Assembly: GCA_964479995.1 (NCBI GenBank)
Contig: CAYZPF010000001.1
Location: forward strand, 10,948-74,947
Source of the DNA: an uncultured Muribaculaceae bacterium
GTDB lineage: Bacteria > Bacteroidota > Bacteroidia > Bacteroidales > UBA932
Direction: 5' to 3'
DNA length: 64,000 nucleotides
Every line of letters begins with the position of its first letter. Positions within the stretch are counted from its first letter, which is position 1. The notes below the pieces were generated by a model. That model had not been told where the DNA came from. It did not search any database and saw only the letters and a list, made by a program, of their open reading frames with translations. Below are positions 1,482 through 36,399 of the stretch, piece by piece. The translations under genes were made by a program, and so were the position numbers.

Positions 1482-1652
1482 TTAATTATTTAAATATCTT
1501 TTATACTGTCTGTCAATAACATTATTTACTCCCTCAATTTGTTTTTTATAATAGTCAATCTTTGATTGCTGATACTTTAATGCAGTTTTTTGTGGAAATA
1601 GTCTAACACCGATAATCATCCTCTCTAAAGCAATTCTATTTGCCTCATTAAG
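1482..1652 (-). pseudogene. Orphan C-terminal gene remnant fused out of frame to the M16 fragment
   Basis: [37 protein letters not shown], then one frameshift in an A7 run, then QIEGVNNVIDRQYKRYLNN*; family not recognised. Confidence 0.35.
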
Positions 1653-2124
1653 TTTCATTATCTATCTCCTTCTCCTTAAGCAAAAGCTCATTTGCCCAAT
1701 CATGAAGTATCAATAGGCAAGAATCGATAATACCTTCTCTTTTGACAGGTACAGCCGAAATGTTATAAACTGTCTGATCTATTGCAGTATAGGCATTAAG
1801 ATTTGCGCCAAATTTTACGCCAATTGTCTCTAAATAAGATATAATAGTGTTACCAGGAAAGTGTTTAGTGCCATTAAAAGCCATATGCTCTAAAAAGTGC
1901 GCTAAACCTCGTTGATTCTCCTCCTCAAGTATTGATCCTACTTTTTGGACAATATAGAACTCTGCTAATCCTTTTGGTTCAGAGTTCTCCATCACAAAAT
2001 ACGTTAACCCATTCTCTAATTTACCTGTTTTAATCTTCTCATACAGGGGTAATCTCTGTGGTCTTTGTGCCAGGAGTATCACTGGTACAAACAAACAGAT
2101 AATAGCTGTATATACTTTTCTCAT
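1648..2124 (-). pseudogene. Truncated M16 (PqqL-like) zinc peptidase, N-terminal 158 aa
   Basis: Signal peptide, [20 protein letters not shown] (HxxEH); ends EIDNET* where the paralog at 36400 continues ERGVIREE to about 935 aa. Confidence 0.88.
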
Positions 2125-2126
2125 TT

Positions 2127-3467
2127 TTATTTACTCTTTCTCTTTATTATTTCAATGATATTCTCATTAGTTATTATCCGCATACCATGCCTGTCATCCG
2201 ATATACCATCATCAAGCTTGTATGAGTATGTGGGTATATTCCCGTCCATCTCGGTAGGAAGGTATTTAAACTGTATATTGCTGTGCTCCTCTTTTAATGT
2301 CAAACCAGCCTCCATGATATGAGTTGATACAATAAAGGCACACTCTTTTATATCCGAGAAAGCTCCCGTAATAGCTACCGTAGCATCATACGCGTCCTTT
2401 ACGTTTGTTCCTTTAAAAAGTTCGTCAAACATAATTACGAGACTTTTACCCGATGCCGCTTCAACCGCGATTTTCTTTACCCTCACAACCTCTGCATAGA
2501 AGTGACTGTATCCCATATGTATATCGTCCGGTACATTAATGGAGGTATAGAGCCCTTGTCTAACCGAGAATATCATCGACTCTATAGGTGCGGGGAAGCC
2601 CATATGGGCTAAATAGAGAGAGACTCCAAAAGATTTCATAAGGGTTGACTTGCCTGCCATATTGGCTCCCGTGAGGAAAATAACATTAAGGTCATCTGCG
2701 AGATGTATGTCGTTGGAGATAGCATTTGTTATTGCCGGATGATACACACCCTTTATATCAATAACATGATTGTGGCTGCCGGTTGCAACGGCATAATTAA
2801 ATCCTCTCTCTCTTCCTATGGTTGAAACGGTAATGTAAAGATCCATTTCATATAGTATCTCCATTAATCTGTTTATTGGCTCTGAAAGCAGATACCTCAA
2901 CTTATAGTCATATAACGCCATTTTTAAGAAGCTAATATCTTCATCCTCATTTAGAAGATAAATCCAATCAAATCTCTTGCTATGCAGAGAAGTCAAGGCA
3001 TTTTTGATTTGGTTATTGTAGGGATTGACCATAACCTTGTCATTTGTACTCATAGCTGATATTTGCTTCTCCAACCTCTTGATGAATTTAACGGTATGGA
3101 GCAATCCTTGTTGATGAATATCAAATTCCTTGCTATTAGTCAACAACTTAAGCGCTTTCCTTTTTACATTGTGTGAAAAGGAGATTAAGAAGTTTTTATG
3201 ATCGGGGTTGCCAATATAAAACTCAACTATACCTAATTCCTCTTTTGAAAAAGTAAATTCGAACCTACTTTCCTGAAAAAGGTTAAGGATACTACTACGC
3301 TCATTTATCAATGTTTCATCGATAAAGGGGTTGTGGAACATGCGTTCAAGTAATATCTCACCTCCGCGCGTTACTGTGTGATTAAAAAGTGAAAAAATAG
3401 AATTACTTTTAAATTTCCCCAATAAGTTTAAATCTTCAAGCGTCTGTTTATCTATCTCAAACTTCAT
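2127..3467 (-). CDS. MutS-related ATPase (domain III-like plus domain V; no mismatch-binding domain)
   Basis: [33 protein letters not shown] at 3467 overlaps the upstream TGA (TGATG). Confidence 0.9.
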
Positions 3468-4798
3468 CACTTTTTCCTGTTTTTCAAGATATCCAAAATA
3501 CCTTCATTGTTAATGATTATCATGCCATGCCTGTCAGAAGTGATACCCTCTGTAATGCGATATGTATATTTTGGTATTCCATTTTCCATAACAGTAGGTA
3601 AATTGACAAAATAGATGTTATCACAAAGAGATTTGAGAGTACTGCCTGCCTCAATAATGTGGGTAGAGATAATAAAGATGCAGTTTCGTTTGGTGGCAAA
3701 AGCTTCGGTTACGGCAATTGTCGCATCATAAGCGTCTTTAACATTAGTACCCCGAAAAAGCTCATCAAAAATGATAATAAATTTCTTGTCACCAAGAGAC
3801 TCTGCAACCTTCTTGACACGCATAACCTCGGAGTAAAAATGGCTGTAGCCAATATTAATGTTATCGGCAAGGTTTATAGTAGTAAACATACCATCTTGAA
3901 CAGAAAAAGAAAATTCAGAAGCGGGGACGGGAAAACCCATGTGAGCAAGGTAGATAGCAATACCAAAACTCTTCATAAAGGTCGATTTGCCCGCCATATT
4001 GGCTCCTGTAAGAAAAACAACATTGTTTTTACCGTCAATATTGATGCTATTAGGAACAGCCTTCTGCAGAAGAGGATGATAAATACCGTTCATCTCAAGC
4101 CTGTTGTCATCAACAGGAAGAGCCTTAGCGGCAACAAATCCCCTATTAGAAGATACAGAAGCAACAGAAATATAAACATCTAGATAGTAGATGTGTAAAA
4201 GAAGCTGTTTAAGTTCACTCCTGAGAGTATAGCGGTACTCTTGGTCATAGGAAGCTACCTTTGGATAAGCGTATTTCCTAAAGGTACTCTCATTAAGAGA
4301 TGACTGTAACCGTTCATGTGATAAAACATCTTTGATAGAATCAACTTCACTTTGATAAAAAGGAGAAATTTCAAATGTCTCTAATCTTTTAATGAAATTT
4401 TTAGTACTGCAAAGTATCTCAGTCATAGCCAAGACACCTTTGTGCAAAATTTCATATTCCGAATCGCTGCCCATAACACTCTTGAAACGGCGCTCAAGAG
4501 TGTATTCGTGAGCAGAAAGACGTGTCCTGTTGTCGGTATTGCTAAGATAAAACTCGACAGTATCGAAAAGATCACCTCTGAAAGGAAAAGAGATGTTAAT
4601 CTCCTGAAAAAAACGGATAATATTACTACGACGATTTATCTCAATCTCATCAGAGAGTGGATTCTTAAACATGCTTTCCAGCAGGAGAGAGCCGCCACTG
4701 GTTGCAGTCCTGTTGAAAAGACCGTAAACAGAGCGCTCCCTTAACCTACCAAAAATACCTAAGTCATTTATAGTCTGTCGATCAACTCTAAAACTCAT
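3467..4798 (-). CDS. MutS-related ATPase (paralog of the adjacent gene)
   Basis: [39 protein letters not shown]-terminus FNRTATSGGSLLLESMFKNPL is domain III-like. Confidence 0.9.
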   Translation of the reverse strand: MSFRVDRQTINDLGIFGRLRERSVYGLFNRTATSGGSLLLESMFKNPLSDEIEINRRSNIIRFFQEINISFPFRGDLFDTVEFYLSNTDNRTRLSAHEYTLERRFKSVMGSDSEYEILHKGVLAMTEILCSTKNFIKRLETFEISPFYQSEVDSIKDVLSHERLQSSLNESTFRKYAYPKVASYDQEYRYTLRSELKQLLLHIYYLDVYISVASVSSNRGFVAAKALPVDDNRLEMNGIYHPLLQKAVPNSINIDGKNNVVFLTGANMAGKSTFMKSFGIAIYLAHMGFPVPASEFSFSVQDGMFTTINLADNINIGYSHFYSEVMRVKKVAESLGDKKFIIIFDELFRGTNVKDAYDATIAVTEAFATKRNCIFIISTHIIEAGSTLKSLCDNIYFVNLPTVMENGIPKYTYRITEGITSDRHGMIIINNEGILDILKNRKK

Positions 4799-4817
4799 TA
4801 TAAAAACTATTTACAGA

Positions 4818-7139
4818 CTACCTGCCTCGTCTTCTAAGCCACATTAGTATATAAGAAACCAGCATAGCCAAAGGTATAAAACCAATTAACGACCATTTGG
4901 TGATGCGCATACCGGTAAGACCAACATAGACCTTTCTGTCGGTAAACGGAGGTCTTCTAACATCAATAGGAACTTCATCATCGGATAACCAGAAGAATGA
5001 GCCCATAATAAGATTATAATTTGAGGCTCTAATACCTTTTCTACTTCTATTCAACTCTCCATTACTAATGCAGTCGGCATCACCAACAACTATGATCTTC
5101 TGCTCTCTTTCCCCAACCTGTCTGCTTAGAGCTAACGCAACAGGAATAGATGCCTTGGCTACCTCCCCGGTCTCAGGATTAATCTTAACGGTATCGTCGA
5201 CAAAATTGGTGGTCTGCAATTCACTCCAGGTACCACCCGATGTGTCAGTAACGAAAAGCTCGGTAACATCAAAACCTTTGGATGCGCTATTCTCATAAGA
5301 GAGCGCAGCAGCACCGGGCATGGTGAGAACTTGTCTCCTACTAATCATATTCCTTAGCCAATACATCATTCTTCCTCCCTCTTTTGTAGGAATAGCTTGG
5401 ATCAAATCGGGAGAGAACTCCTCTGAAGGTTTAACCAATATGCCGGGTAAGAATTCTACGCCAAAACGAGATAATAAAGGATTAATAAACTCTCGCTTAC
5501 TAGCCTCTCCAGTTAAAATTAGATTACCACCTTTGTCAATATATTGATCAAAACTCTCCAATTCAATATCCGAAAGATTTTGTCTTGGTTCAGCTATTAC
5601 TAAGATGTCAATATTATCAGGCATACCTTTGTCCAATTCAATCTCCTCAAAATCAAATCCTTGGTTGATTAATGAATAACGGAAAGTCTTCTGTTGTGCA
5701 AGCATATTATAATCCCTATCACTCAGGCGGATACAATCTCTCTCGCCATGACCTTTTACAAAACCAACTTTTGGCAAATCCATAACCAAACGCTTAAATG
5801 CAGCAGAGATCTCTGCCTCGGAAGGGAAAATAGATATATCATCAAAAATCCTTAGAAATGTCTTCTGCCCATTCTCTCTTACCAAAGTTCGTACAAAACG
5901 GTTTCCTTCAGGTTCAAGATTTTCAATCTTTCTTATCTCCTCAGGACGCATAAAAAGATTACTGTCAACTCGATTAATCCTAGCATACTCAAGCATCCTC
6001 TCTCTGTCATTAAAGTCGGGATAGCGCCTATCTAAATTTTCATTATAATCTTTATCGCCACTTCTATCATAATAACGATAAAACTTCATCTTAATTTCAG
6101 GTTTAAAGCGTACATATTGCCTAAAGCGGTCAATGTCTTTAAGTTCATGTTTAGGAAAACCATAGGTATAGTGCCTGTCAAGAATGTTAGAAAAGGTATT
6201 GATGGTAAGCTTACCATCCATCTTAGCCACAATCTCTTGACTGTTTTGAGTTAAAGAATTAACTTTTCTTCTAGTGGAGTCATGATAAAACATCATCTTT
6301 GGACGGGAAGTGACATAACCAAGTCCAAAAGCTAAAATAAAAATTAAAGCATACCTACTGAAAGCTTTACTGAATGGCATTTTTTGTCTATTGGCCTTCA
6401 ATCTTAAAATCGAGAGCGCTAAGAATAAGATAATAACAATAATAAAATAGAGAAAATCTTCACTACAAATAAGACCATTAATAAACTCGCCTGCTCTTCC
6501 TTCTATTGAAAGCCACCAAGTTATATCTCTTACCAAAGCAATCTCTTGCCATAATCCCCCAACCATATTTAGAGCCGCTAAAATTATGAAGGTACCAATA
6601 GCTGCAACTATCTGATAAGAAGTTAAACTGGACATAAAAAGGCCGATAGCAGAATAGGTGAGAATTAGCAGAAAAATACCAAGTAATCCTGTTAATACAG
6701 CCGAAAAATCAAAATTCTGAATAGTAAACCCACCATAAAAGACAAAAATTAATAAAATGGCTATTAAACATAATGAATAAACAACCATTGATAAAAATTT
6801 ACCTAAAATTATCTGAGAATTAGTAACAGGAGAAGAATAAAGCTGTTTAATGGAACCACTACTCAACTCTCGGCTCATCAACCCCATGGTTAATAGAGGA
6901 ATATATAAATATAAGTGTTGTAGAATTTGTGGGAAAAAACCTCTATTTCTTAAACTAAATATAGAAAATGTAAGGTCATATAAGGAATGTCCCAAAGCCT
7001 GACTAGTTACGGCACCTCCGTAGATATTTGTAAATGTAATACTAGTCTGTATCGTAAACACAATAAGTGTAAGCCAGGCAATAGGAGAATAAAAGAGAGT
7101 TTGTAACTCTGTTTTTGCTATTTTAAAGATCATTTTCAT
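4818..7139 (-). CDS. GldF/GldG-like fused ABC-2 permease plus periplasmic auxiliary domain
   Basis: Multi-TM N-terminus (LFYSPIAW, LLTMGLMSRE, IILGKF), then GldG-type GFVKGHGER, YIDKGGNL, IIVVGDADCISN, and a C-terminal TM ending RRRGR. Confidence 0.88.
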   Translation of the reverse strand: MKMIFKIAKTELQTLFYSPIAWLTLIVFTIQTSITFTNIYGGAVTSQALGHSLYDLTFSIFSLRNRGFFPQILQHLYLYIPLLTMGLMSRELSSGSIKQLYSSPVTNSQIILGKFLSMVVYSLCLIAILLIFVFYGGFTIQNFDFSAVLTGLLGIFLLILTYSAIGLFMSSLTSYQIVAAIGTFIILAALNMVGGLWQEIALVRDITWWLSIEGRAGEFINGLICSEDFLYFIIVIILFLALSILRLKANRQKMPFSKAFSRYALIFILAFGLGYVTSRPKMMFYHDSTRRKVNSLTQNSQEIVAKMDGKLTINTFSNILDRHYTYGFPKHELKDIDRFRQYVRFKPEIKMKFYRYYDRSGDKDYNENLDRRYPDFNDRERMLEYARINRVDSNLFMRPEEIRKIENLEPEGNRFVRTLVRENGQKTFLRIFDDISIFPSEAEISAAFKRLVMDLPKVGFVKGHGERDCIRLSDRDYNMLAQQKTFRYSLINQGFDFEEIELDKGMPDNIDILVIAEPRQNLSDIELESFDQYIDKGGNLILTGEASKREFINPLLSRFGVEFLPGILVKPSEEFSPDLIQAIPTKEGGRMMYWLRNMISRRQVLTMPGAAALSYENSASKGFDVTELFVTDTSGGTWSELQTTNFVDDTVKINPETGEVAKASIPVALALSRQVGEREQKIIVVGDADCISNGELNRSRKGIRASNYNLIMGSFFWLSDDEVPIDVRRPPFTDRKVYVGLTGMRITKWSLIGFIPLAMLVSYILMWLRRRGR

Positions 7140-7151
7140 AATTAATTCGTA

Positions 7152-8078
7152 TTAATGGGCTGTTTTGGAAATTTCTGCAAAAATGGTGTCAAGAGAACTC
7201 TTCTCAAGACGAATCTCATTTAAACGCCATTTGTTGATAACACTGGCCTCAACAACTCTTTCAATAACATCTTGACTATCAGAGAACTTTAGTCTAAAAT
7301 TAGTTTTACTAAGCTCCTCAACACCAACAACACCGGGTATCTTTGATAATTCATCAACAGAGGGAGACTCTAAAAGAGAGACAAAGATGGAGTCAGGTGT
7401 TATATAGTTATCAAACTCGTCAACAGTACCGGAAAAAACCATACGACCCTCTTCAATCATTCTAATATGATTACAAATGGCTTGAACTTCGGAAAGAATG
7501 TGAGTAGAAAGAATAACAGTCCTCTCTTGAGCTATATCCTTAATTAAATTTCTAACCTCAACTATTTGATTGGGGTCAAGGCCATTAGTGGGTTCATCCA
7601 ATACAACCAGTTCAGGCTTGTGAATAATAGCTTGAGCTATACCAACACGCTGTTGATAGCCACCCGATAAATTGCGAATAAGACGCTTACGAAAATGAGT
7701 GATACCACACTCTCTCATAACATCCTCAACGGCAGAAGGAATTTTATTTTTAGAAAGACGCCTGATATTGGCACTATGAACTAAGTATTCTTCTAAAGTT
7801 AAGTCTAAATGAAGAGGAGGTTTTTGAGGTAAAAAACCTATAAGTTTCTTGGCATCAACAGGCTTATCTTTGATATTGATGCCTTTAATGAAAACATCAC
7901 CCTTAGTCTGTTTTAGTACACCACACATAATGTTCATTATAGTAGATTTACCGGCTCCGTTAGAGCCAAGCATACCATAAATCCCGCGATCAGTAATCTC
8001 CAGATCAACGTCTTTAACAGCCCATTGAACAGTATATTTATGTGAGAGATTGTTAATTCTTACAATTGGTTCCGACAT
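7152..8078 (-). CDS. ABC transporter ATP-binding protein (GldA/CcmA-like)
   Basis: GSNGAGKST, LSGGYQQR, LDEPTNGLDPNQI, LSTHILSEV. Confidence 0.95.
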   Translation of the reverse strand: MSEPIVRINNLSHKYTVQWAVKDVDLEITDRGIYGMLGSNGAGKSTIMNIMCGVLKQTKGDVFIKGINIKDKPVDAKKLIGFLPQKPPLHLDLTLEEYLVHSANIRRLSKNKIPSAVEDVMRECGITHFRKRLIRNLSGGYQQRVGIAQAIIHKPELVVLDEPTNGLDPNQIVEVRNLIKDIAQERTVILSTHILSEVQAICNHIRMIEEGRMVFSGTVDEFDNYITPDSIFVSLLESPSVDELSKIPGVVGVEELSKTNFRLKFSDSQDVIERVVEASVINKWRLNEIRLEKSSLDTIFAEISKTAH

Positions 8079-8241
8079 TATTTTATATTTTATGTTGATA
8101 TTTGAAATTTTCTAACAATTTAATTTTATCATTACATTACTTGATAAGTTTAAAAATAAAAATGACTAAATAGATGATATAATCTTGTGAGAAATATTAG
8201 CCAAAATTCTTATTTCATAATCTATTTTTGCTTTATCATCA

Positions 8242-8278
8242 TAACAAGAGAGGGAGGCATCAGTTCTACCTCCCCCTA
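8242..8278 (-). terminator. Stem-loop after the PKD lipoprotein gene
   Basis: Minus strand AGGGGGAGGTA-GAACTGA-TGCCTCCCTCT followed by CTTGTT (11-bp stem with G-U pairs, weak U tail). Confidence 0.6.
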
Positions 8279-8292
8279 TTTTAATAAAGAAT

Positions 8293-9810
8293 TTAAACAT
8301 ACTTATACCAAATATCTACTATTTTACCATCAAATTGAGTTTCAAATAGTACCTTTTGCTCTTCAATGTTACTAATAATTATTGCCTCTTTAATATCTAG
8401 TATGAAAAATTTACCATTTTCTAATCCAATACCAATAGAATTACTATTACTATATTGAGAACTTATTGTCGTTATTTTACTATCAAAGCCCTCTTTAAAT
8501 ACTGCATGCTTCTTTGTTCTCGGATCGTAATAATACAACTTATACGGATCACTACCTGATACAAAAAACAAGTATGGTCGCGCTCTTAGTAATTCAAAAA
8601 TTGTCCCTTCGCCCATTAATACCCTTGTATCACTTGGTATTTGATCATAATCTATCCTAGTACACACATTTTGAGGATTTGAGGTAGGTTTATGTATCAT
8701 GGCGTACACATACAACTCTCCGGTTGCTTTATCTCTGATTATGGAATGAATATCGTATTGCGTCCCGGAATTTTTCATCCTGGAATAAAGTACATCATAA
8801 TTACTTAAATCATTAGGTGAAGGAATACCTGTCGTGGGGGACCAATCAACCGGTGGATTTATCGGAATAAGTTTACCTGCTGACTGGATGCCAGCAGCCT
8901 CCAATCTATAAAAACAGGATGTTTTTCTGTCATAAACAGAAGGGTAATACACTCCATAGTGAAACAGGATAAATCGAATATCTAACACTTCACTATTTAA
9001 AGTTAAAGGTACTGTTGCAAAATAGCTATAAGGATATTCAGCAGCCCCATTATGAGTTTTTGTAAAAAGTCGACCATCCTCACCTAGTATAGCAGAAACA
9101 GCTATACCCGACATCATATATTTAGGAACAAAATTTTCTGGACATTTATGGTCAACAAAATCGGTTGTAAAATCTCCGAAATAAGAGTAGGTATTCGCGT
9201 CTAAAATAATATCATCGCCAGGTTCTCCCTGCAATATTCTAATCTCTTTCCTTCCCCCAACATTATATAATACTTTTCTTGGGTTAAAACCAAGATCTTT
9301 TCCTGTTGTTGTTCTATAAATATCTTTATCCGAAACCCATTCTTTGTTTACTTCTCTTGCAAAATTTAAAGTACTCTTTCCGGAGTGGTCAGATAAAACC
9401 AGCCAACCAACTTTGTAGGGCGTTGCCACAACAAAAGAGAGGCCGGCAGTAAATGAAGCTCCAGTAGTAGTATCTTTAGCAATACATATACCTAAATAGG
9501 TCTTACCCACTACAGCATTTTGAAGTATCACACTCATATTTCGCTCTGTGCATACCAATCCCAGCTCATCAAAATGATATTCCCATTTATATATATTAGT
9601 ATCTACCTGATTCTCATTGTAATATTTAACAATAGGGATAAATTCAACAGGTTCTCCCACCTCAAATGTAGCTGAGCTACTCGAAAAAGTAATGTCAATT
9701 TCGTTTGTCATGATATCTTTATACTCATAATTTCCTTTATCGGGGAAACAAGATTTTAAAGGGATAATCCCTAACATTAAAATAAAGAGTATTGTAGTAT
9801 TTTTTTTCAT
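8293..9810 (-). CDS. PKD-like family surface lipoprotein, probable C-terminal beta-propeller
   Basis: Lipobox LKSC followed by FPDKGNYEY, typical of this family; GWLVLS motif; position after susD and DUF4843. Confidence 0.8.
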   Translation of the reverse strand: MKKNTTILFILMLGIIPLKSCFPDKGNYEYKDIMTNEIDITFSSSSATFEVGEPVEFIPIVKYYNENQVDTNIYKWEYHFDELGLVCTERNMSVILQNAVVGKTYLGICIAKDTTTGASFTAGLSFVVATPYKVGWLVLSDHSGKSTLNFAREVNKEWVSDKDIYRTTTGKDLGFNPRKVLYNVGGRKEIRILQGEPGDDIILDANTYSYFGDFTTDFVDHKCPENFVPKYMMSGIAVSAILGEDGRLFTKTHNGAAEYPYSYFATVPLTLNSEVLDIRFILFHYGVYYPSVYDRKTSCFYRLEAAGIQSAGKLIPINPPVDWSPTTGIPSPNDLSNYDVLYSRMKNSGTQYDIHSIIRDKATGELYVYAMIHKPTSNPQNVCTRIDYDQIPSDTRVLMGEGTIFELLRARPYLFFVSGSDPYKLYYYDPRTKKHAVFKEGFDSKITTISSQYSNSNSIGIGLENGKFFILDIKEAIIISNIEEQKVLFETQFDGKIVDIWYKYV

Positions 9811-9820
9811 ATCTCAAGTT

Positions 9821-10492
9821 TTAAATTCTAACCGTTATTGTCATTAATAAACCATCCTCATCTAACGTAGGATGAGAATCTAGATAAGCTTTAAATTGAA
9901 GTGCCCAAGATCTAATCCAAGAAATGTTCACTTCAGAAAAATCGGGTTTTACTACTTCAACAAACAGTTTAAATTTTGTATCAGAGTATTTTCCTAGGTA
10001 ATAGGTAATTACCTCCGCCGTCCACCAATCGGGCTGAGCTATCATATCACTAACCTTAATAAATAGTCTTCTAAAATTTCTATCTCCCATTAAAAAATCC
10101 CTACTCTCATTTAACTCAATACAAATTAAATCTTCGGAAGTAGCCAATTCAGGATAATTTAAAAGTTTAAAATATAAAGTATCATACATACTCATCGGTT
10201 TAAACTTCATTGTAGAAGGTAGAATATATGAACCATTCTTCATTGTAGTATGTTCCGGAACAACTGAAATAGAAAATTCTTTCTCATTTAAGGATGGGAT
10301 TCCAATATGTTGCAGAATTATTGGACATTCATATTCAGAAAGACCGCCAAGCATAAAGAAAGAGACGATCATAGTGTCCTTTTCCGTTCTAGTAAAAGAA
10401 ATAAAACTGGTAGAATCGTATACTTTTATATCATCTATTTTACAAGCTGATACTCCGATAATTATTATTAATAAATATAAATACCTTTTCAT
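9821..10492 (-). CDS. DUF4843-like lipoprotein
   Basis: Lipobox VSAC; QPDWW...YYLGKYSDTKFKLF motif; directly after susD. Confidence 0.8.
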   Translation of the reverse strand: MKRYLYLLIIIIGVSACKIDDIKVYDSTSFISFTRTEKDTMIVSFFMLGGLSEYECPIILQHIGIPSLNEKEFSISVVPEHTTMKNGSYILPSTMKFKPMSMYDTLYFKLLNYPELATSEDLICIELNESRDFLMGDRNFRRLFIKVSDMIAQPDWWTAEVITYYLGKYSDTKFKLFVEVVKPDFSEVNISWIRSWALQFKAYLDSHPTLDEDGLLMTITVRI

Positions 10493-10504
10493 AATTTCTA
10501 TTTT

Positions 10505-11965
10505 TTAATTTAAAAACTGACTATCCGGTATTTGAAATGTCATCCTCTCTTCTATTGGAGGATAATTCCCTCCTTCAAATAGTATCGGGTAATTTAATCG
10601 TTTATACATAAAGAAAAGTTGACCTTCACCTATAAATTCTCTTCTAGCATCATTAATCAATATATCATATAACTCTGATTGACCGCTTATTGCTAAGATT
10701 TGTCGTTTACAACCCTTTCCCGAACGATATTCTTTAAGTAATCTTAAAGACTCATCAACGTCTCCCATTCGATAATAATACTCAATTAACGTATAGTATA
10801 TCTCACTCATTCTAAAAATTGGAATAGCTCTACCCTCCACATTGTCAGTCATGTCACTATTAACCATACGATATTTTAAAGAATTTCCGTATCCTTCAAC
10901 TTCTCTTTCAATTAAATAGAGTCTGTAATCATCCTCGTCTTCATAAAAAATATTTACTACATCACCTATAGGTAATGTGTTGGATGCGTAATAATTTTCC
11001 ACTGTATTCAACAAGTTTCTATTGTAAAAAGAAAATGGACTTTCAGATAAATATTTCTTCTGTCTAGAAGCTAAAGCTCCTGAATAATCACTTGAAGAGC
11101 TGAAGTTAAAATACCTTCTATCGCTTATTATGAACTCATCATAAAAATGTTTAGCAAATATAAATGCATTTTCATAATCACCCTTGTAAAGATGTACTCT
11201 AGATAACAAAGCAATGACAGCACAATAATTCATTCGGAAACCTCTTTTAGAGAAAAATTCTCCCCCATCAACTGTCCCCAGTACTGATCCATCATATCTG
11301 GCCGTTCTTGAATTTATAGCATTCCTATTCAAAATTGTATCATGAAAGGCCAATAAATTTTTTGCCTTTAATAAATCATCTGTAATCCTCTTTAAAGTTT
11401 CAACCGTTGTCAACGGAATGGTTATTTGCGAAGGATAAATATCATAATAAGGTACTAAAGTTGCGTTTAGGTCATTCATGACGGACGGGGCAAATAATCT
11501 CAACCAATCTAAATGCAACATAGCTCTCAGTGCTAACGCCTCGCCTTTTATAACATTTCGCCCGGTTGTATCCAATGTAAATAAGGATGGTTGAACATTT
11601 TCTATCTCATTTAATAAAATATTACAATTGGCAATTGCATTATAAGATTGGGACCAAACACTATTTATTAAGGGTAGTATCCGTTCACTTTGATAAAGAT
11701 AACGCATAGCACTTTGCTCTACTATATTAGTTGCGCTAGCATAATTTTGTGCAATACAACTTAATAATCCCCAACTTAATGTTTTGCCATAAAGAGATGG
11801 CTCCGAACATTTCTGATATATTCCGTTTAATGCATTATGAAAACCAACCTCATTAGAAAAAACAACATCTTTAATTATCTCACTTTTTGGTCGTACCTCT
11901 AGCCATTTATTGCACGAGATTAGTGATATGGTCAATATTGGTAGTATAAATAATATTTTTTTCAT
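10505..11965 (-). CDS. susD: SusD/RagB nutrient-binding lipoprotein
   Basis: SCNKWLEVRPKS, YNAIANCNILL, GEALALRAMLHLD, RMSEIYY, RREFIGEGQLFF. Confidence 0.95.
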   Translation of the reverse strand: MKKILFILPILTISLISCNKWLEVRPKSEIIKDVVFSNEVGFHNALNGIYQKCSEPSLYGKTLSWGLLSCIAQNYASATNIVEQSAMRYLYQSERILPLINSVWSQSYNAIANCNILLNEIENVQPSLFTLDTTGRNVIKGEALALRAMLHLDWLRLFAPSVMNDLNATLVPYYDIYPSQITIPLTTVETLKRITDDLLKAKNLLAFHDTILNRNAINSRTARYDGSVLGTVDGGEFFSKRGFRMNYCAVIALLSRVHLYKGDYENAFIFAKHFYDEFIISDRRYFNFSSSSDYSGALASRQKKYLSESPFSFYNRNLLNTVENYYASNTLPIGDVVNIFYEDEDDYRLYLIEREVEGYGNSLKYRMVNSDMTDNVEGRAIPIFRMSEIYYTLIEYYYRMGDVDESLRLLKEYRSGKGCKRQILAISGQSELYDILINDARREFIGEGQLFFMYKRLNYPILFEGGNYPPIEERMTFQIPDSQFLN

Positions 11966-11977
11966 AGCAAATCTTGG

Positions 11978-14900
11978 TTAAAATGTTAGTCTTAAATCAA
12001 AACTAAAAATCCTTGCGTACGGATATGTTGTTCCTCTCTCCCTTTTTATAGTTGAAAGATATAATACATCATTCATGTTAAATTGTAGTTTTAATTGGCT
12101 CATGCTCATTCTTTTTACGAATCCGTCTTTCTTTGTCCACGCCAGACTCAAAGAATTAAATCTGAAAGTATTATTGTCTTGTACAAACCTGGAAGTAGGG
12201 CGCGTATAAGCAGAACGGTCTGCAATATCTTTCAAAGGGGTAATGTCTCCTATTGCTCTCCATCTATCCGTTAGTACTCTCCTATCTGCATTATAATTAT
12301 AAAGATTAACTGATTCAATTTTCATAGGGATTGTAGTGTTATAAGCCTGCCCACCATATTCGTACAAAAAGCTCGTAAACATACTCAGGCTATTCCATTG
12401 AAAATTAAATCCGAATGCCCCCTGAATAATTGGTAATTTATTTCCTAAAATTTGCTGCTCATTAGCCTCCCAATTAAAAGTGATTGTCCCATCTCTTCTC
12501 ACAAAAACTTCCTTGCCGCTTGTTGGATCTATCCCTAAAGATTTCATACCAAAAATTGATGTTGTTGAACCGCCTTCTTCATATTTAACAAAAGGTTTTG
12601 CATACTTTTCATCATTTGAGCTTATTGAATAATTTTTTGTGTAATATTCATCTACTTTACTGTTATAGTGTTTCAAAGAGTTTGCAATTTCCAATATCTT
12701 ATTATTATTATGAGCAAGATTACCAAAAATGGCAAGAAACAAATTTTTCTTTTTAATGATATCTGATCTAATATCTAATTCAAATCCTGTATTTTCAACC
12801 TTTCCCATATTATCATAATAAGTTGTAAAGCCATACGATGAAGGTACGGTTATTTGAGAAACCATATCTATTGTTTTAGCATAATAATACGCAGGTTTTA
12901 AGTATAGTAGCCCATTTTTAATGTTTATTTCAAGCTTTAAATCGTAACTCTTCTTTTTCTCCCAATTTAATTGAGGATTTCCCATAGCATTTAACACTAT
13001 TCCCATACCCGTGGCATACCAAGTGTCAGAGAAGATTTTATAAATGTCTTTTGCGGCATAAGGAGGGAAATTTAATTTACCGGTTTCTCCGGTTGTAGCT
13101 GTTATTTTCAACTGTGTTAAATATGGGTGATTTTGTAAAAAAGGATATTTATGAATATTTAATCCTATACCTAGCGACCAAAAAGGAGCATATTTTTTCT
13201 CCCAACCAAATTCAGTTGAACCATCAACTCGAACAGAACCATCAAAAAGATAAATATCATCATATGAGTAATTAATTCTGAAGAAGCTTCCAAACAATCT
13301 CGTATTATTATCTAGCTCCAACGGTTTACTACTAATCTCCTGTGCAAACATAATCGAACTCATATTTCCCGAAGGAAAACCTTGATATTTTGCAATTATT
13401 GAAGATACTTTTGTTTCATAACTATTAAAACCTAAAGATGTACTTATGTGATTTAATCCAATTGAACGATTGTATAAAAGTTGTAAATTTGTTGTCCAAT
13501 TAAAATTATTACCATCTGTTTTTGTTAATTCTCCTTTTGCCTTATCAGCATATCCTATAGCATATCTTCCGGAAAGAGGATCAAAGAAGACCTCCTTAGT
13601 ATTAATCTCTTTGACAAGTCCTATTTGTCCTTTAAAATTTAGATATGCATTGGGACGCCAGTCTATAACTAAATTATTGGAAAATTCTTGACTATCGCCT
13701 TTAGAGAAATTTTGTGTCATACTCCCTTCATACATGGGATTTACATAATCAGTTGACGTTAAATACCATCTTGGGAAAGTATATACATATTCCCCATAAG
13801 AGTCATATAATTCATTATACGGAGCCTGTTTTACAAAATCAGCAAATGTACCATAGGGTGAATCTTTCGAATCAATTTTATTAAATGAAGCCCTGTTAAT
13901 TATCATTAATTTTTCAATTCTATAATCAAGTCTTAGCTCGGCACCTAATCTATTGCGATAGTCTTTTTTCATCACCCCTTTCTGTTGGTCATAAAGAAAA
14001 TTAATCCCATAACGAATATTGTTACTACCACCGTCAATAGCTAGACTGTGTTTATGATTATATCCTACCCTTAATGGTAATGATAGCCAATAAGTATTGA
14101 CTCCTTTTTCTATTGCATTTTGTTTATCTGCTATTTCTTTGTATAAATGTCTTACACCTCTTTGACCACCTGCCGGATCAGGTATATAGTATCCCGACAA
14201 TATCTCTGCTTCAAGTTTTTCCCTAGCATCAAAATAATCATAACTATTTAAATCTGGTACTGATAGATTGCCCATTAAACTATAAGCTATATTAAAAACT
14301 CCTGCTTTAGGCGCAATTGTCTCAATTACAATTACTCCATTTGATGCTCTAGAACCGTATACAGCTGTGGCTGCTGCATCTTTTAGAATAGTTATACTAT
14401 GAATTCTGTTTGGATCCATATCGTATATCTTTGAAATACTCACAGTAAGACCATCAAGAATAAATATTGGTAAACTTGGATTAGACTTCATTTTAACTTC
14501 CGATATATCTTCTATATCTAAATCCACAATTCCCGATTGTCCTCTTATATAAAAATCAGGAATTACATTTGGATTGGAGCCCATTGCATTATTTTCCATT
14601 ATCCTAAAAGAAGGATCAAAAACTTGAAGAATTGAAATCACATTTCGGCTTGCAACCTCTTTAATTTGTTCGCCACTAACTCGGGTGGCACTACCCGTAT
14701 AAGATTCTTTTCTAATATTCTCATAACCTGTCACCACCACATCGTCAAGGCTCATAGGCATATCTTCAAGTGTTATTATATACTCTTTTTCTCCGGTAAG
14801 AATCCTATCATCCATTATTTCATTTATCTTGATTTCTCTGCTCCTCATACCAATATAACTGAAAACTAAAATAGGATTATCAATTTCAGGAATTTTTATC

Positions 14901-15388
14901 GAATATTTTCCGTCACTATCTGTAAAAGCTCCTATTCTCGTCCCCTTTACAATTATATTAACTCCTACAAGAGGTTGGTTTTTATTATCAACTGCCCTCC
15001 CTATTATGGTAATGCTCTCTTTAACTTGTTGTTGACGTGATGTTTTTTTAATTAACAGTACTTCATTTACCTTTTCATATCTTAGGTTTGTACCTTTTAG
15101 AATATGTTCAAGCACCTCTTCTATTGTAGCATTCTCAAATGAAACATCTCCACATTCAAGGTCCCTGACACTATTAAGATCATAAAGTATTTTAACTCCC
15201 GGCAAATTTTTGATTTGATTTAATGCATCGACTAACGAAGCTTTTTTAATCGATATGGTGATAGGCTTCGGTTGTCCGGCAACAAAAGCACCGAATCCCA
15301 CGTTGGATGAAACGAGTATCACTGCCAGAGATAATACCTTAAAAAACAGCAGGGGATTACCCCATCTTAATGGAATTTTTTTTCTCAT
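11978..15388 (-). CDS. susC: SusC/RagA TonB-dependent transporter with N-terminal STN signalling domain
   Basis: STN-like N-terminus, carboxypeptidase-like domain, VVVTGY, LKDAAATAVYGSRASNGVIVIET, C-terminal RLTF. Confidence 0.96.
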   Translation of the reverse strand: MRKKIPLRWGNPLLFFKVLSLAVILVSSNVGFGAFVAGQPKPITISIKKASLVDALNQIKNLPGVKILYDLNSVRDLECGDVSFENATIEEVLEHILKGTNLRYEKVNEVLLIKKTSRQQQVKESITIIGRAVDNKNQPLVGVNIIVKGTRIGAFTDSDGKYSIKIPEIDNPILVFSYIGMRSREIKINEIMDDRILTGEKEYIITLEDMPMSLDDVVVTGYENIRKESYTGSATRVSGEQIKEVASRNVISILQVFDPSFRIMENNAMGSNPNVIPDFYIRGQSGIVDLDIEDISEVKMKSNPSLPIFILDGLTVSISKIYDMDPNRIHSITILKDAAATAVYGSRASNGVIVIETIAPKAGVFNIAYSLMGNLSVPDLNSYDYFDAREKLEAEILSGYYIPDPAGGQRGVRHLYKEIADKQNAIEKGVNTYWLSLPLRVGYNHKHSLAIDGGSNNIRYGINFLYDQQKGVMKKDYRNRLGAELRLDYRIEKLMIINRASFNKIDSKDSPYGTFADFVKQAPYNELYDSYGEYVYTFPRWYLTSTDYVNPMYEGSMTQNFSKGDSQEFSNNLVIDWRPNAYLNFKGQIGLVKEINTKEVFFDPLSGRYAIGYADKAKGELTKTDGNNFNWTTNLQLLYNRSIGLNHISTSLGFNSYETKVSSIIAKYQGFPSGNMSSIMFAQEISSKPLELDNNTRLFGSFFRINYSYDDIYLFDGSVRVDGSTEFGWEKKYAPFWSLGIGLNIHKYPFLQNHPYLTQLKITATTGETGKLNFPPYAAKDIYKIFSDTWYATGMGIVLNAMGNPQLNWEKKKSYDLKLEINIKNGLLYLKPAYYYAKTIDMVSQITVPSSYGFTTYYDNMGKVENTGFELDIRSDIIKKKNLFLAIFGNLAHNNNKILEIANSLKHYNSKVDEYYTKNYSISSNDEKYAKPFVKYEEGGSTTSIFGMKSLGIDPTSGKEVFVRRDGTITFNWEANEQQILGNKLPIIQGAFGFNFQWNSLSMFTSFLYEYGGQAYNTTIPMKIESVNLYNYNADRRVLTDRWRAIGDITPLKDIADRSAYTRPTSRFVQDNNTFRFNSLSLAWTKKDGFVKRMSMSQLKLQFNMNDVLYLSTIKRERGTTYPYARIFSFDLRLTF

Positions 15389-15406
15389 AATTTAAAAATT
15401 TAGTTA

Positions 15407-16621
15407 TTAGGTAACACCGTTTATTTTAGCTTTCTTTTTTTTAATAATTACATCTCTATCTTTTACAATAAATTTAATATCTACCTGTGCTTCAAACAAT
15501 TTTACAAACGAATCAATGTTCTTATACTTATCTAAGCTTCCGGAAAACAAAATGCTTTTTATATCGTCCGACTCATACATAACAGTTAAGTCATACCACC
15601 TGGCAAGGATTTTCATTATCTCTTCAAAAGGGAGACTCTCAAATTGAAAAAGTTTATCTTTCCAGCTCACATAATTTTTCACACTTACATTACTAACTTT
15701 TTGGGTACCAGACGAAAAATGATAGATAAGTTGCTGACCTGGTAAAAGAATAGTCTCTTCTCCTTGAGCTACTTTAAATGAGACTGCACCTTTTACAAGA
15801 GTCGTATATCTATAATCGTCCTCTGCATAGTCCTTAACATTAAATTGTGTTCCAAGTACAGTTATATCGCCTGAATTAGTGTTGACGATAAAAGGTTTCG
15901 ATTCATCTTTTGCAACTTCAAAATAGGCTTCTCCCTCTAACCAAACAACTCTCTTTTTTTCCGTAAATGATATAGGATATTTTAGTTTGGAATCAGCATT
16001 CAACCATATCTTTGTACCATCCGAAAGTATGAGCGAATACTCGCCTCCCCTTGGCACAAGAAGGGTATTGATTAATATCTTTTTGGACAGCTCTTTTTGT
16101 GTATCTTTCTCATATTCTACTCTATTAGATTCGATACTTATTATTTTTCCCCCTTCCTTAAGAATACCCTCTTTTAAATTTAAACCTCCTAGATTTATCT
16201 CCTTCCCGCCATCAAGAATTAAAAGAGCTTTTTTTTCTACAGGTTTAATATTTGAAAAATCAGCAATAAGCTTAATATCAGGCTTATTAGAACTTATAAC
16301 TCCATTAAACAGATATAAAATAATTACAATTGCAGAGGCTATTCCCACAGACCAACCAGATAGAGTATAGGCTCTTCTCTTAACCCTGTTCCCTCTGATT
16401 CTTCTCTCCATATCTCTTCTAGCCTTTTGGGTATCAATTTCCTTATATTTATGATAAGTCTTTATCAACAACTCTCTATTTTGCAATCTTTTAAATAACT
16501 CCTGATTCTTCGCCGATGCTTGCAACCAAAGATTCAGGTAAGATTGCTCCTCTTCTGTCAGAGTATTGAATTCTCTTTTAACAAGAATATTTATAATTTT
16601 TTCTAATTCCATACTTGGCAA
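15407..16621 (-). CDS. fecR: FecR-family anti-sigma factor
   Basis: TM segment, VPRGGEYSLILSDGTKIWLNADSKLKYP, LEGEAYFEV, VLGTQFNV. Confidence 0.95.
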   Translation of the reverse strand: MPSMELEKIINILVKREFNTLTEEEQSYLNLWLQASAKNQELFKRLQNRELLIKTYHKYKEIDTQKARRDMERRIRGNRVKRRAYTLSGWSVGIASAIVIILYLFNGVISSNKPDIKLIADFSNIKPVEKKALLILDGGKEINLGGLNLKEGILKEGGKIISIESNRVEYEKDTQKELSKKILINTLLVPRGGEYSLILSDGTKIWLNADSKLKYPISFTEKKRVVWLEGEAYFEVAKDESKPFIVNTNSGDITVLGTQFNVKDYAEDDYRYTTLVKGAVSFKVAQGEETILLPGQQLIYHFSSGTQKVSNVSVKNYVSWKDKLFQFESLPFEEIMKILARWYDLTVMYESDDIKSILFSGSLDKYKNIDSFVKLFEAQVDIKFIVKDRDVIIKKKKAKINGVT

Positions 16622-16678
16622 TATTTTCTATGAATTAATACAATAGTTTTGTCTCATTATCATCCTTTCGCATATTAG

Positions 16679-16705
16679 AGACGCTTAAAAGTCGAAAAAG
16701 GCTCA
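16679..16705 (-). promoter_or_regulatory. Candidate ECF-sigma promoter for the fecR-susC operon
   Basis: Minus strand TGAGCC-N16-CGTCT about 60 nt upstream of fecR. Confidence 0.5.
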
Positions 16706-16746
16706 AATAATTTTGACATTTTTATATCTTTACAAAAATCTCTCTT

Positions 16747-17442
16747 TTGATGCAATTTGATAGAGGAATAATTGATTCTTTTAAAAAAGGCAATCTTGAG
16801 CCGTTTTATTCTCACACCTATCCTGCAATGCTTATATATGCAAAAAGGCTATTAGGTGCTGGCTATGAGATGTATGCAGAAGATTGTGTTCAGAATGCCA
16901 TATACAAAACATGGAATAAAAGAGATATTTTTTCTGAGTCAAGTTCTCCAATTACATTCAGAGCATATATATATAGGTGTATCTTTAATGAAATTATGGA
17001 TATTAAACGGGCAAAATTCCGTTTTAATAAATTTGCAGAACAGAGCACCGATACTCCGGAGTTTTTCAATTCTGTGATTGAGCAAGAGGTTACAATAGCC
17101 ATTATTGAGGCAATAAAAAAATTACCTCAAAAAGAGAGAGAAGTTATTGAATTAAGTTATTTTAAGGGGCTAAAAAACAGTGAAATCGAAGAAAAATTAG
17201 GTATTTCTCTCTCCACTGTAAAACGTTACAAGAAAAGCGCTCTTGATTTCTTAAGGAAGAATATTCTCGAAACTATTACAATACTTATATCTATTATGCA
17301 TAACCCCTCACCCATTACTCATAACAGCTCACAGTTCACTCATCATAATTCACCCATCACCCGCCACCATTCACAATCTTGCCGGGTCAAAGAGTTTACT
17401 GTCGGGCGGAGTTGTACTCTTTTCGGGGATAATTTCCAGTAA
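16747..17442 (+). CDS. ECF sigma-70 factor with a repeat-derived C-terminal extension
   Basis: AEDCVQNAIYKTW (region 2), LPQKEREVIELSYFKGLKNSEIEEKLGISLSTVK (region 4); divergent from fecR; start 16747 (TTG) or 16750 (ATG). Confidence 0.92.
   Translation: MMQFDRGIIDSFKKGNLEPFYSHTYPAMLIYAKRLLGAGYEMYAEDCVQNAIYKTWNKRDIFSESSSPITFRAYIYRCIFNEIMDIKRAKFRFNKFAEQSTDTPEFFNSVIEQEVTIAIIEAIKKLPQKEREVIELSYFKGLKNSEIEEKLGISLSTVKRYKKSALDFLRKNILETITILISIMHNPSPITHNSSQFTHHNSPITRHHSQSCRVKEFTVGRSCTLFGDNFQ
17299..17375. repeat. Degenerate heptamer tandem repeat, 11 units
   Basis: CATAACC CCTCACC CATTACT CATAACA GCTCACA GTTCACT CATCATA ATTCACC CATCACC CGCCACC ATTCACA. Confidence 0.8.
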
Positions 17443-18213: not shown

Positions 18214-18235
18214 AACTTATTAATTTATAATTATT

Positions 18236-20521: not shown

Positions 20522-20541
20522 CAGCTTAATTATTTGAAGAT

Positions 20542-21864: not shown

Positions 21865-21958
21865 TGCTTATAATTTACCTGAATTTAACATCTAAAATCC
21901 CGGCCAATTATAGGCAGATTTGAGAGGCAAATAATCTTATTTTAAAAAGTCAAACCAA

Positions 21959-36257: not shown

Positions 36258-36399
36258 TTCAATTCACTTTAATAATTATATCTTAGTTTTTAAATTTTCA
36301 ATTCGGTGTAACCACAAAAATAAAAAATATATTTTAGTATGCAAAATTATTCTTTACATTTGTAAAATGTTAAGGTTTAATGCAAATCGCAATTTTTTT

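Follow-up and report, generated by a model that had tools for sequence, protein, structure and literature searches.

A two-module SusCD locus with a GldAFG-like ABC transporter and a pair of MutS-fold ATPases in an uncultured Muribaculaceae bacterium

Background

Several described systems resemble parts of the locus analyzed here. RagAB of P. gingivalis and ButCD of B. fragilis are SusC-SusD pairs for peptides or proteins, without glycosidases and with a metallopeptidase neighbour, and PMC11467351 also describes import of a disulfide-bonded toxin by SusCD. Its section on butCD names none of the STN/FecR/ECF signalling, extra lipoproteins, GldAFG-like ABC transporter and MutS pair of the present locus. 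The Fus and Ydd/PqqL systems of protease-associated import, described for Proteobacteria (PMC6793856), likewise combine a TonB-dependent receptor, a periplasmic M16 protease of ~930 aa and an inner-membrane transporter. The receptor here is SusC with a SusD lid rather than FusA or YddB, from which the S1 legend of that paper sets SusC apart; nothing here shows a link to iron, and "MutS" does not occur in that paper.

The GldA, GldF and GldG proteins of Flavobacterium provide a model for the transporter, with a GldA-like ATPase, a GldF-like permease and a periplasmic GldG/GIFT domain; PMC9127263 reports that the lipoproteins GldJ and GldK need GldA and GldF for stability. The proteins considered here differ in several ways: F and G are fused, all three components score below the NCBIfam cut-offs, a genome can have up to 21 of the genes, and the association is with SusCD loci rather than with gliding genes.

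For the MutS pair, the closest descriptions are those of MutS4A/MutS4B and MutS3A/B in the passages of PMC2190696 covered here, which are paralogues from an old duplication without mismatch domains, the MutS4 genes being adjacent with overlapping stop and start codons as here. Linkage to an ABC transporter is not described in those passages, and no word beginning with "Bacteroid" occurs in the main text. Other MutS-fold ATPases, the reactivase KamC (NF052383) and the ribosome splitter MutS2 (PMC11633108), act on protein or ribonucleoprotein complexes; the mini-MutS proteins score far below the cut-offs of both models. Among the papers that our literature search listed, none dealt with this arrangement, and none of a set of 25 contained DUF4843.

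Anatomy of the locus

The window is the whole stretch of 64,000 nucleotides that was analyzed. Near its beginning, the minus strand carries ten co-directional open reading frames, from fecR through an M16 peptidase fragment, with an ECF sigma factor gene diverging 125 nt from fecR:

16747..17442, plus strand: ECF sigma factor, divergent (profile matches)
15407..16621, minus strand: FecR-type anti-sigma factor (profile match)
11978..15388, minus strand: SusC TonB-dependent transporter with STN signalling domain (TIGR04056, 552 bits, cut-off 368)
10505..11965, minus strand: SusD lipoprotein (profile match; lipobox Cys18 from sequence)
9821..10492, minus strand: DUF4843 lipoprotein (profile match)
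8293..9810, minus strand: PKD_2 lipoprotein (profile match)
8249..8277, minus strand: GC-rich 11-bp hairpin (folding energy versus shuffles)
8159..8170, minus strand: TTTAGTCAnTTT motif (common to stand-alone ABC blocks)
7152..8078, minus strand: GldA/DrrA-like ABC ATPase (profiles and motif check)
4818..7139, minus strand: GldF-GldG-like fusion of an ABC-2 permease with a periplasmic ABC_transp_aux/GIFT domain (profile matches)
3467..4798, minus strand: mini-MutS subunit A, domains III and V, no TM segment (profiles, tree, model)
2127..3470, minus strand: mini-MutS subunit B (44% identity to A)
1648..2124, minus strand: 5' fragment of a PqqL-type M16 peptidase (158 of about 938 aa)
1482..1661, minus strand: 59-codon remnant, thioredoxin-like 3' end (tblastn within the genome, E 3e-4 and 9e-4)

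From fecR to the M16 fragment, the intergenic gaps are 18, 12, 12, 10, 214, 12, 19, -4 (overlap) and 2 nt. The original prediction thus holds for the ten co-directional genes of these families, the small gaps interrupted by one of 214 nt, and the divergent sigma factor. Its statement that no CAZyme is present was also confirmed: the locus has the SusC-SusD pair and regulator of a polysaccharide utilization locus, and none of its 11 proteins has a CAZyme domain (a minority of relatives carry one). The claim that the DNA is AT-richer than its flanks applies to the half from ECF to PKD, with a GC content of 0.329 that is equally low in 4/275 genome windows, and not to the half from ABC to M16, where the value of 0.369 is ordinary (107/482 genome windows are as low).

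The locus consists of two separable modules, a front end of ECF, FecR, STN-SusC, SusD, DUF4843 and PKD genes and a back end of ABC, GldF-GldG, MutS-A and MutS-B genes. STN-SusC, FecR and ECF proteins together carry out trans-envelope signalling. The sigma factor gene has about 40 extra low-complexity codons at its C-terminal end, which overlap the next gene by 72 nt; FecR has one TM segment near residue 84; and sequence search found no solved relative of the PKD_2 lipoprotein. Just 3' of the PKD stop codon lies the hairpin (-21.3 kcal/mol, z -3.98, 0/200 shuffles as stable), which, with its weak U tract, could be a terminator or an mRNA stabilizer. The TTTAGTCAnTTT motif lies ~90 nt upstream of the ABC start and precedes both close ABC copies and the ABC genes of four relatives; it may be a promoter element for the back end, and only its position counts, as four occurrences in the genome compare with 2.2 expected. 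The hairpin and this putative promoter probably separate the MutS/ABC block from susC. Scans for sigma-70 promoters (88 sites versus 73 +/- 10 expected) and terminators (12 versus 8.8 +/- 3) are uninformative as counts, and an Rfam search of window positions 1-24000 gave no matches.

This copy of the locus is decaying at its 3' end. The M16 fragment retains HXXEH and stops before the conserved downstream Glu motif, so that the intact FusC/PqqL-type protease of the Fus/Ydd systems is lacking at this position. The 59-codon remnant resembles the 3' end of thioredoxin-like genes from other SusCD loci and weakly suggests a deletion. One contig of sequencing run X1 crosses the M16 break without differences and so gives no sign of an assembly artefact, X1 being possibly the source of the same DNA and therefore not independent support. 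Intact M16 paralogues, at 36367-39207 of the window and on C21, could replace the truncated enzyme; an intact paralogue matches PqqL at 257 bits, and the copy on C21 is PqqL-like.

The mini-MutS proteins

MutS-A and MutS-B (443 and 447 aa) are encoded by genes whose stop and start overlap by 4 nt (3467-3470). Both have the core and ABC-type ATPase domain of the MutS superfamily, and only MutS_III and MutS_V match. The mismatch-binding (I) and connector (II) domains have been lost; in the MutS1 of this genome, about 265 residues at the N terminus have no counterpart in the pair. The clamp domain (IV) has also been lost; about 70 MutS1 residues are missing at residues 148-155 of A, where a structure model of A has short helices. 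The prediction of MutS-fold ATPases without DNA-repair domains was therefore correct. The ATPase motifs GANMAGKS, SHFYxEV, DELF(R/K)GT and STH are conserved across both clades. The pair lacks the length of about 790 and C-terminal Smr domain of MutS2 and scores 84 and 68 bits with TIGR01069 (cut-off 400), and 117 and 90 bits with the KamC model NF052383 (cut-off 300); a true KamC is encoded on C3 of the same genome, and a full MutS1 and MutL elsewhere.

In a tree made without MutS3/4/6/8/9 reference sequences, A and B form old, separate clades (A, 58 sequences, support 0.995; B, 57 of 58, support 0.934). Their trees mirror each other (r 0.85), and A and B are fused in 7/61 loci. MutS ATPases work as dimers.

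What the pair travels with

The order SusD-DUF4843-PKD-ABC-GldFG-MutS recurs in seven other non-redundant loci and is therefore not due to chance, as the original prediction of recurring synteny proposed; the similar gene orders it placed in other groups agree with presence in the family with Gabonibacter-type proteins and among proteins named for Pedobacter and Chitinophaga. The main partner of the pair is GldFG, present within 3 kb in 49/54 non-redundant loci (the five exceptions include the C21 locus of the same genome); a single-protein scan of genome contigs gave only two loci. Single MutS relatives with 26-41% identity have GldFG at that distance in 0/14 loci. SusCD lies within 15 kb in 34/46 pair loci, and DUF4843/PKD in 14/46.

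The dependence runs one way. GldFG occurs in 25/25 pair-bearing genomes of family f167 versus 6/51 without the pair, and in 10/10 versus 2/111 in the bacterium's own family, related genomes not being independent in either case. The pair itself is dispensable: it is missing from 7/9 GldFG-bearing genomes of a class sample, and SusCD-ABC-GldFG(-M16) loci exist in genomes without it. GldFG adjoins SusCD in 10/11 regions fetched from pair-free genomes, and all 16 MutS-free GldFG regions fetched from genome G675 come after a SusC-SusD unit. The pair was found in 4/250 genomes of an order sample and in none of 300 other genomes of a phylum sample (5 candidates scored each).

Distances tell a similar story. 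Across 23 loci, A correlates with GldFG (0.68) and ABC (0.70; Mantel p 0.001) and not with SusC (0.04, p 0.24; with a mean of 3.0, SusC distances come close to saturation), while SusC and SusD correlate at 0.77. Overall, rho between pair and ABC/GldFG tree distances is 0.5-0.7, and common descent of the hosts may account for part of the correlation between A and GldFG. The idea of a GldFG subfamily specific to MutS was rejected, since MutS-adjacent GldFG proteins fall into more than one clade (17 label changes versus a mean of 35 after shuffling, with one locus, L141, wrongly labelled MutS-free).

The MutS pair thus follows the ABC transporter and not the SusCD type, and SusCD partners are exchangeable. 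The proposal of one machine wired to this SusCD type is not supported, given this co-variation, the 12/46 loci with the pair and no SusCD, the many SusCD-ABC-GldFG loci and genomes without the pair, and the hairpin and probable promoter that divide the block from susC here. Because the pair travels with the pump across many genomes, it likely serves the ABC transporter rather than DNA.

Proposed function

Our preferred reading, which falls just short of an even chance, is a locus of two modules for the uptake and processing of peptides or small proteins, with a generic ABC back end and a MutS heterodimer. The front end (ECF, FecR, SusC, SusD and two lipoproteins) is predicted to induce itself upon sensing its ligand. 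The GldA/GldFG-like transporter, whose ATPase has intact Walker A, signature, Walker B and H-loop motifs, would then carry peptide products over the inner membrane, and the mini-MutS proteins would assemble into a heterodimer that uses ATP to reset or regulate it. One pair per genome would act in trans on many ABC copies, one genome having 21 GldFG genes and a single pair. This reading predicts contact between MutS and ABC proteins. At locus L151 a single MutS relative is fused to an ABC ATPase; a complex prediction with MutS-A, the ATPase half of MutS-B and the ABC ATPase (score 0.02, mark 0.32) is evidence neither way.

The direction of transport and the reset role are doubtful. Most transporters of the ABC-2 type export their substrates, and the default direction is thus not import. 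The fullest version is rather unlikely in its entirety: a previously undescribed back end for peptide import in Bacteroidota, in which a GldAFG-type ABC transporter works as the importer for dozens of SusCD receptors that induce themselves, and an obligate heterodimer of MutS fold, docked on its cytoplasmic side, uses ATP to unjam or unload it.

The ABC transporter could instead carry no nutrients and, like GldAFG, help lipoproteins or the receptor of its own locus to be folded, released or trafficked in the periplasm, with the MutS pair assisting it. This is unlikely, even though the best NCBIfam matches are GldA, GldF and GldG, of which the first two are required for stable GldJ/GldK (PMC9127263). 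All three models score below cut-off (TIGR03522/03518/03521, 274/403, 79/289 and 33/390 bits), and F and G are one gene. Matching of an ABC to the substrate of its SusC was rejected: within one genome ABC/GldFG distances barely track SusC (rho 0.15-0.16, p 0.05-0.07), the pattern that a generic helper would be expected to show. Against such a role, most SusCD loci in the genome lack the transporter (33 long SusC versus 3 GldFG), and M16 directly follows GldFG in pair-free loci.

The substrates are probably peptides, judging from the genes nearby. Among 93 scanned neighbours were 13 peptidases, 8 thioredoxin-fold proteins and one glycoside hydrolase, and in this bacterium's genome a thioredoxin-like gene follows 21/36 SusD genes. 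The Peptidase_Mx1-like lipoproteins after SusD were rejected as active peptidases and not counted, since HExxH is present in 0/26. The SusC of the window scores best on RagA; a 20-sequence SusC profile gave ButC 702 bits and the 8aa4 SusC, which we take to be from a dextran system, 693 bits, and so did not separate peptide from glycan. Among the sequencing runs listed as matches none was of RNA, and four low-share matches gave no habitat evidence.

The same neighbours could serve protection, with the locus sensing antimicrobial peptides that come in via SusCD and are membrane-active or disulfide-bonded, reducing and cleaving them, and the ABC transporter expelling them from the inner membrane. 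WCxxC is present in 37/43 thioredoxin copies of the genome, a disulfide-bonded toxin is among the cargoes that SusCD can take in (PMC11467351), some loci add a MacAB-TolC-type exporter, and the next-best ABC matches are DrrA and lantibiotic-protection models. These matches are below cut-off, however, and dozens of receptor loci per genome suit foraging better than defence, making protection quite unlikely.

It is improbable that the MutS pair has only its place in the ABC operon and that its targets are nucleic acid, ribosomes or the sigma/anti-sigma proteins. The fold matches MSH/MutS (Foldseek E 2e-20) and, among the matches listed, only MutS/MSH structures; MutS2 splits ribosomes (PMC11633108); an ECF gene often follows MutS-B; and five loci lack adjacent GldFG. 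Opposed to this are the missing mismatch, connector and clamp domains, a median pI of 6.9, no MutL among the 93 scanned neighbours, the way the pair depends on GldFG across genomes, and the fusion between ABC ATPase and MutS relative. Very improbable are glycan or glycopeptide utilization loci with enzymes encoded elsewhere, for although glycoside hydrolases lie in or beside four loci (GH3; GH63-like and GH2; GH29; GH92), qualifying the predicted absence of glycan enzymes, and the SusC profile is compatible with glycan transporters, neighbourhoods are mostly glycosidase-free, peptidases and thioredoxins far outnumber glycosidases, and neither the window locus nor six scanned C21 genes include one.

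Conclusions

What is new in this locus is an ABC back end that is linked to SusCD and present in multiple copies. What GldAFG-type transporters carry and do becomes testable in a fused family that stands behind SusCD in anaerobes, away from gliding genes and with as many as 21 copies in one genome, as does the poorly defined route of SusCD-captured peptides past the periplasm in proteolytic Bacteroidota. Natural controls are provided by relatives that have one MutS pair and by others in which the locus is the same but the pair is absent. A MutS sub-lineage without DNA-handling domains and dependent on a membrane transporter would put the fold to a new use and would mean widespread mis-annotation, its members being labelled "DNA mismatch repair protein" in databases. 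If the fullest version of the proposal is true, a member of the MutS family has been turned from a DNA clamp into an accessory of a membrane transporter.

Organization of the locus and its genomic setting

The gene positions and domains of the original prediction were borne out, with ten minus-strand genes and a divergent ECF sigma factor gene. Successive intergenic gaps along the minus-strand series are 18, 12, 12, 10, 214, 12, 19, -4 and 2 nt. The genome is that of an uncultured Bacteroidales bacterium (2.46 Mb, GC 0.385, 92% complete). The AT-richness ascribed to the whole locus held for the half from ECF to PKD (GC 0.329; 4 of 275 windows equally low), but the half from ABC to M16 is ordinary (0.369; 107 of 482). 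GC is 0.33 in the locus SusC and spans 0.33 to 0.43 over the genome's 33 counted long SusC genes.

Features of the window
About 1030-1315: a repeat dispersed between genes; other contigs, often those that bear SusC, have many copies at 75-94%
1346-1417, plus: 73 nt that match the 3' part of a pgk-like gene (at about 449-521) with 74% identity and E 1e-8; a degenerate duplicate that lies on that gene's side of the locus
1648-17442: the locus, ECF (plus), then FecR, STN-SusC, SusD, DUF4843, PKD, ABC ATPase, GldFG (a GldF-GldG-like fusion), MutS-A, MutS-B and M16 fragment (minus)
17371-23071, minus: genes for an AraC regulator, a 440-aa protein, MMPL/RND and LolA-like proteins, convergent with the ECF gene (72-nt overlap)
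36367-39207, plus: intact M16 paralogue, 946 aa, 68% identity across the fragment

Genes that accompany the MutS pair

Loci carrying the adjacent A and B genes were mapped in genomes and metagenomes (77, or 61 after collapse at 90% identity) and their neighbours compared with those of single relatives, which are unpaired mini-MutS proteins.

Neighbours of the MutS pair and of single relatives at the same distances (pair loci with sufficient flank only; single relatives are a small control)
GldFG within 3 kb: pair 49/54; single 0/14
SusC+SusD within 15 kb: pair 34/46; single 0/5
DUF4843/PKD: pair 14/46; single 0/5
M16 within 3 kb: pair 13/56; single 0/13
Thioredoxin within 5 kb: pair 13/56; single 0/13

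The exact gene order is found at 8 loci, the window counted. In the host's own family the pair occurs in 10 of 121 genomes, all among the 12 that bear GldFG, and in another family (f167; G665, with a 39% single relative, dropped) in 25 of 76, all among 31 GldFG-bearing genomes; kin in these counts are not independent. The dependence of the pair on GldFG runs one way, because GldFG-bearing genomes are often without the pair. A class sample of 400 genomes included 9 with GldFG, 2 of them with the pair; three of the 9 have ECF-FecR-SusC-SusD-ABC-GldFG-M16 and no MutS match; and one genome (G675) has a single pair for 22 GldFG hits, which are 21 genes, with a SusC-SusD unit preceding GldFG in 16/16 MutS-free regions examined. 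The arrangement is patchy: the pair was found in 4 of 250 genomes of an order sample and 0 of 300 of a phylum sample, and its named genera include Chitinophaga, Pedobacter, Pseudobacter and Gabonibacter. The literature searched, which covers MutS subfamily classification incompletely, gives no account of a SusCD-ABC-MutS arrangement.

A modular back end

In the host's genus and family the ABC-GldFG-A-B block is often found by itself, with unrelated genes around it (G436, G586, G622, L001, L002, L015). Across the 23 loci with all six genes, distances of A correlate with those of GldFG (0.68) and ABC (0.70) and not with those of SusC (0.04) or SusD (0.08), while SusC and SusD correlate with each other (0.77). 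Within G675 the values are 0.76 for ABC-GldFG, 0.79 for SusC-SusD and 0.16 for GldFG-SusC. Since the pair and ABC covary, SusC and SusD do not follow them, and stand-alone blocks exist, we regard the pair together with ABC as a generic back end that can sit behind receptors of various kinds. The single wired SusCD-ABC-MutS machine first proposed is best replaced by two modules. At one locus (L185, G542) the receptor in front of ABC-GldFG is of a TonB type other than SusC and is accompanied by DUF4876, DUF6850 and a ChaN haem-binding protein, a hint that substrates may be more varied; at another (L120, G716) about 15 tandem GLPGLI/Porph_ging-type genes precede the MutS pair in place of ABC.

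The 214-nt gap between PKD and ABC begins with an 11-bp hairpin (z -3.98) and contains TTTAGTCAnTTT about 90 nt upstream of the ABC start. The same element is found at a second close ABC copy (contig C16) and at stand-alone blocks L001, L002, L014 and L015, and the window GldFG groups with the GldFG of those stand-alone copies. We infer from these sequence features that, in this locus, an AT-richer receptor unit was joined to a back end of the stand-alone type that has a putative promoter of its own. Elsewhere the corresponding gap does not exceed 60 nt in 14/47 loci, and co-transcription is likely there because of that short spacing.

The MutS pair

Domain searches find only MutS_III and MutS_V in A and B, with no TM segments. 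The AlphaFold model of A (pLDDT 84) matches the MutS/MSH core plus ATPase with TMq 0.59-0.71 among the matches listed. Relative to the host's MutS1, both lack about 265 N-terminal and about 70 clamp residues; each has conserved Walker A, signature, Walker B and H-loop motifs. A tree was built from 136 sequences, with near-duplicates and partial loci removed by hand and fused proteins split into halves. In it all 116 sequences from pairs fall into a single clade (support 0.955), comprising A (58; 0.995) and B (57/58; 0.934). A lies upstream of B in 57/58 loci, distances among A proteins parallel those among B proteins (r 0.85), and in 7/61 non-redundant loci A and B are one fused protein; it is natural to infer an obligate heterodimer. 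MutS4 pairs likewise come from adjacent genes with overlapping stop and start (PMC2190696).

The single relatives (26-41% identity) share this architecture among mostly other genes. One (L005) follows an ABC ATPase gene, another (L006) lies upstream of ECF-FecR, and a third forms the rear part of a 680-aa fusion with an ABC ATPase domain (L151; the fusion gene and a 109-aa ORF overlapping it, at 9376-11740, minus, lie beside nuo-like genes). At L007-L010 and L058-L077 single relatives repeatedly follow a conserved gene of about 450 aa, dihydroorotase-like by eye, with ABC and SusC absent nearby.

The M16 gene

The M16 gene of the locus stops after 158 codons, right before the ERGVIREE stretch of an intact paralogue on contig C21 (938 aa, 79% identical to the fragment). 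The nearest solved relatives of intact M16 are a 916-aa M16 peptidase and then PqqL. The fragment is followed by 59 codons similar to the terminal part of genes for thioredoxin-like proteins (E 3e-4), which suggests a deletion. The C21 locus reads A-B-M16-ECF-IS-FecR-SusC-SusD-DUF4843-PKD-thioredoxin, without ABC; its DDE transposase (L137, 12569-14113) is inserted between ECF and fecR.

Substrate and proposed mechanism

Among 93 neighbouring proteins (5 plus 88 of the 140 cluster representatives, from which those that looked like housekeeping proteins were omitted) were 13 peptidase matches (M16, S9 twice, S41, S8, M3, M20, M43, M48, M64, Met-zincin, trypsin-like and PmbA/TldD), 8 thioredoxin folds and one GH3. 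A second set of 32, mostly from G675 and chosen from 74, held 4 Met-zincins, M13, M28, PmbA and a trypsin-thioredoxin, together with 4 glycosidases (GH63-like and GH2 within a single locus; GH29 and GH92 following GldFG in two loci). In the host a thioredoxin-like gene follows SusD in 21/36 cases (neighbour labels from BLAST). Lipoproteins after SusD at L153-L168 (G675) and elsewhere are Peptidase_Mx1- or M43-like with HExxH in 0/26, and could possibly be non-catalytic peptide-binding surface proteins. Sequence similarity of SusC does not distinguish peptide from glycan transporters. The best reading of the substrate is peptides or disulfide-bonded small proteins. Comparators are ButCD for peptide/protein SusCD (PMC11467351), Fus and Ydd/PqqL for protease-associated import (PMC6793856), and, as context, peptide-type SusC in digester Bacteroidales of another family (PMC7661554).

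In the general model, ligand on SusCD signals through STN and FecR and frees the ECF sigma factor, and the same relay would operate here. Peptides brought in by SusCD would be reduced by thioredoxins and cleaved by M16; ABC would either move the products over the inner membrane or remove from that membrane those that are membrane-active. A heterodimer of the two MutS proteins may reset or regulate ABC by ATP-driven action, by analogy with KamC, in the role that its NCBIfam name gives it, and with MutS2 (PMC11633108).

It is unlikely that ABC, with its GldA/DrrA-like ATPase and GldFG, is instead a lipoprotein-biogenesis helper in the manner of GldAFG (PMC9127263). Antimicrobial-peptide detoxification is rather less probable. 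We doubt slightly more that the pair, for all its MutS core, acts on nucleic acid or regulators. Full MutS1, MutL and KamC are encoded elsewhere in the genome. Glycan use is very improbable: glycoside hydrolases, expected to be absent from homologous loci, do occur (GH3, GH63-like, GH2, GH29, GH92), but peptidases and thioredoxins are commoner.

Long SusC genes number at least 33 in the 2.46 Mb of the host, and ECF/FecR and thioredoxin genes neighbour most of them; receptor loci that do not look glycan-directed have thus expanded greatly. The locus studied here is real and conserved. It belongs with the peptidase-associated SusCD/TonB import loci, among which its ABC back end is unusual and its MutS-fold accessory optional.
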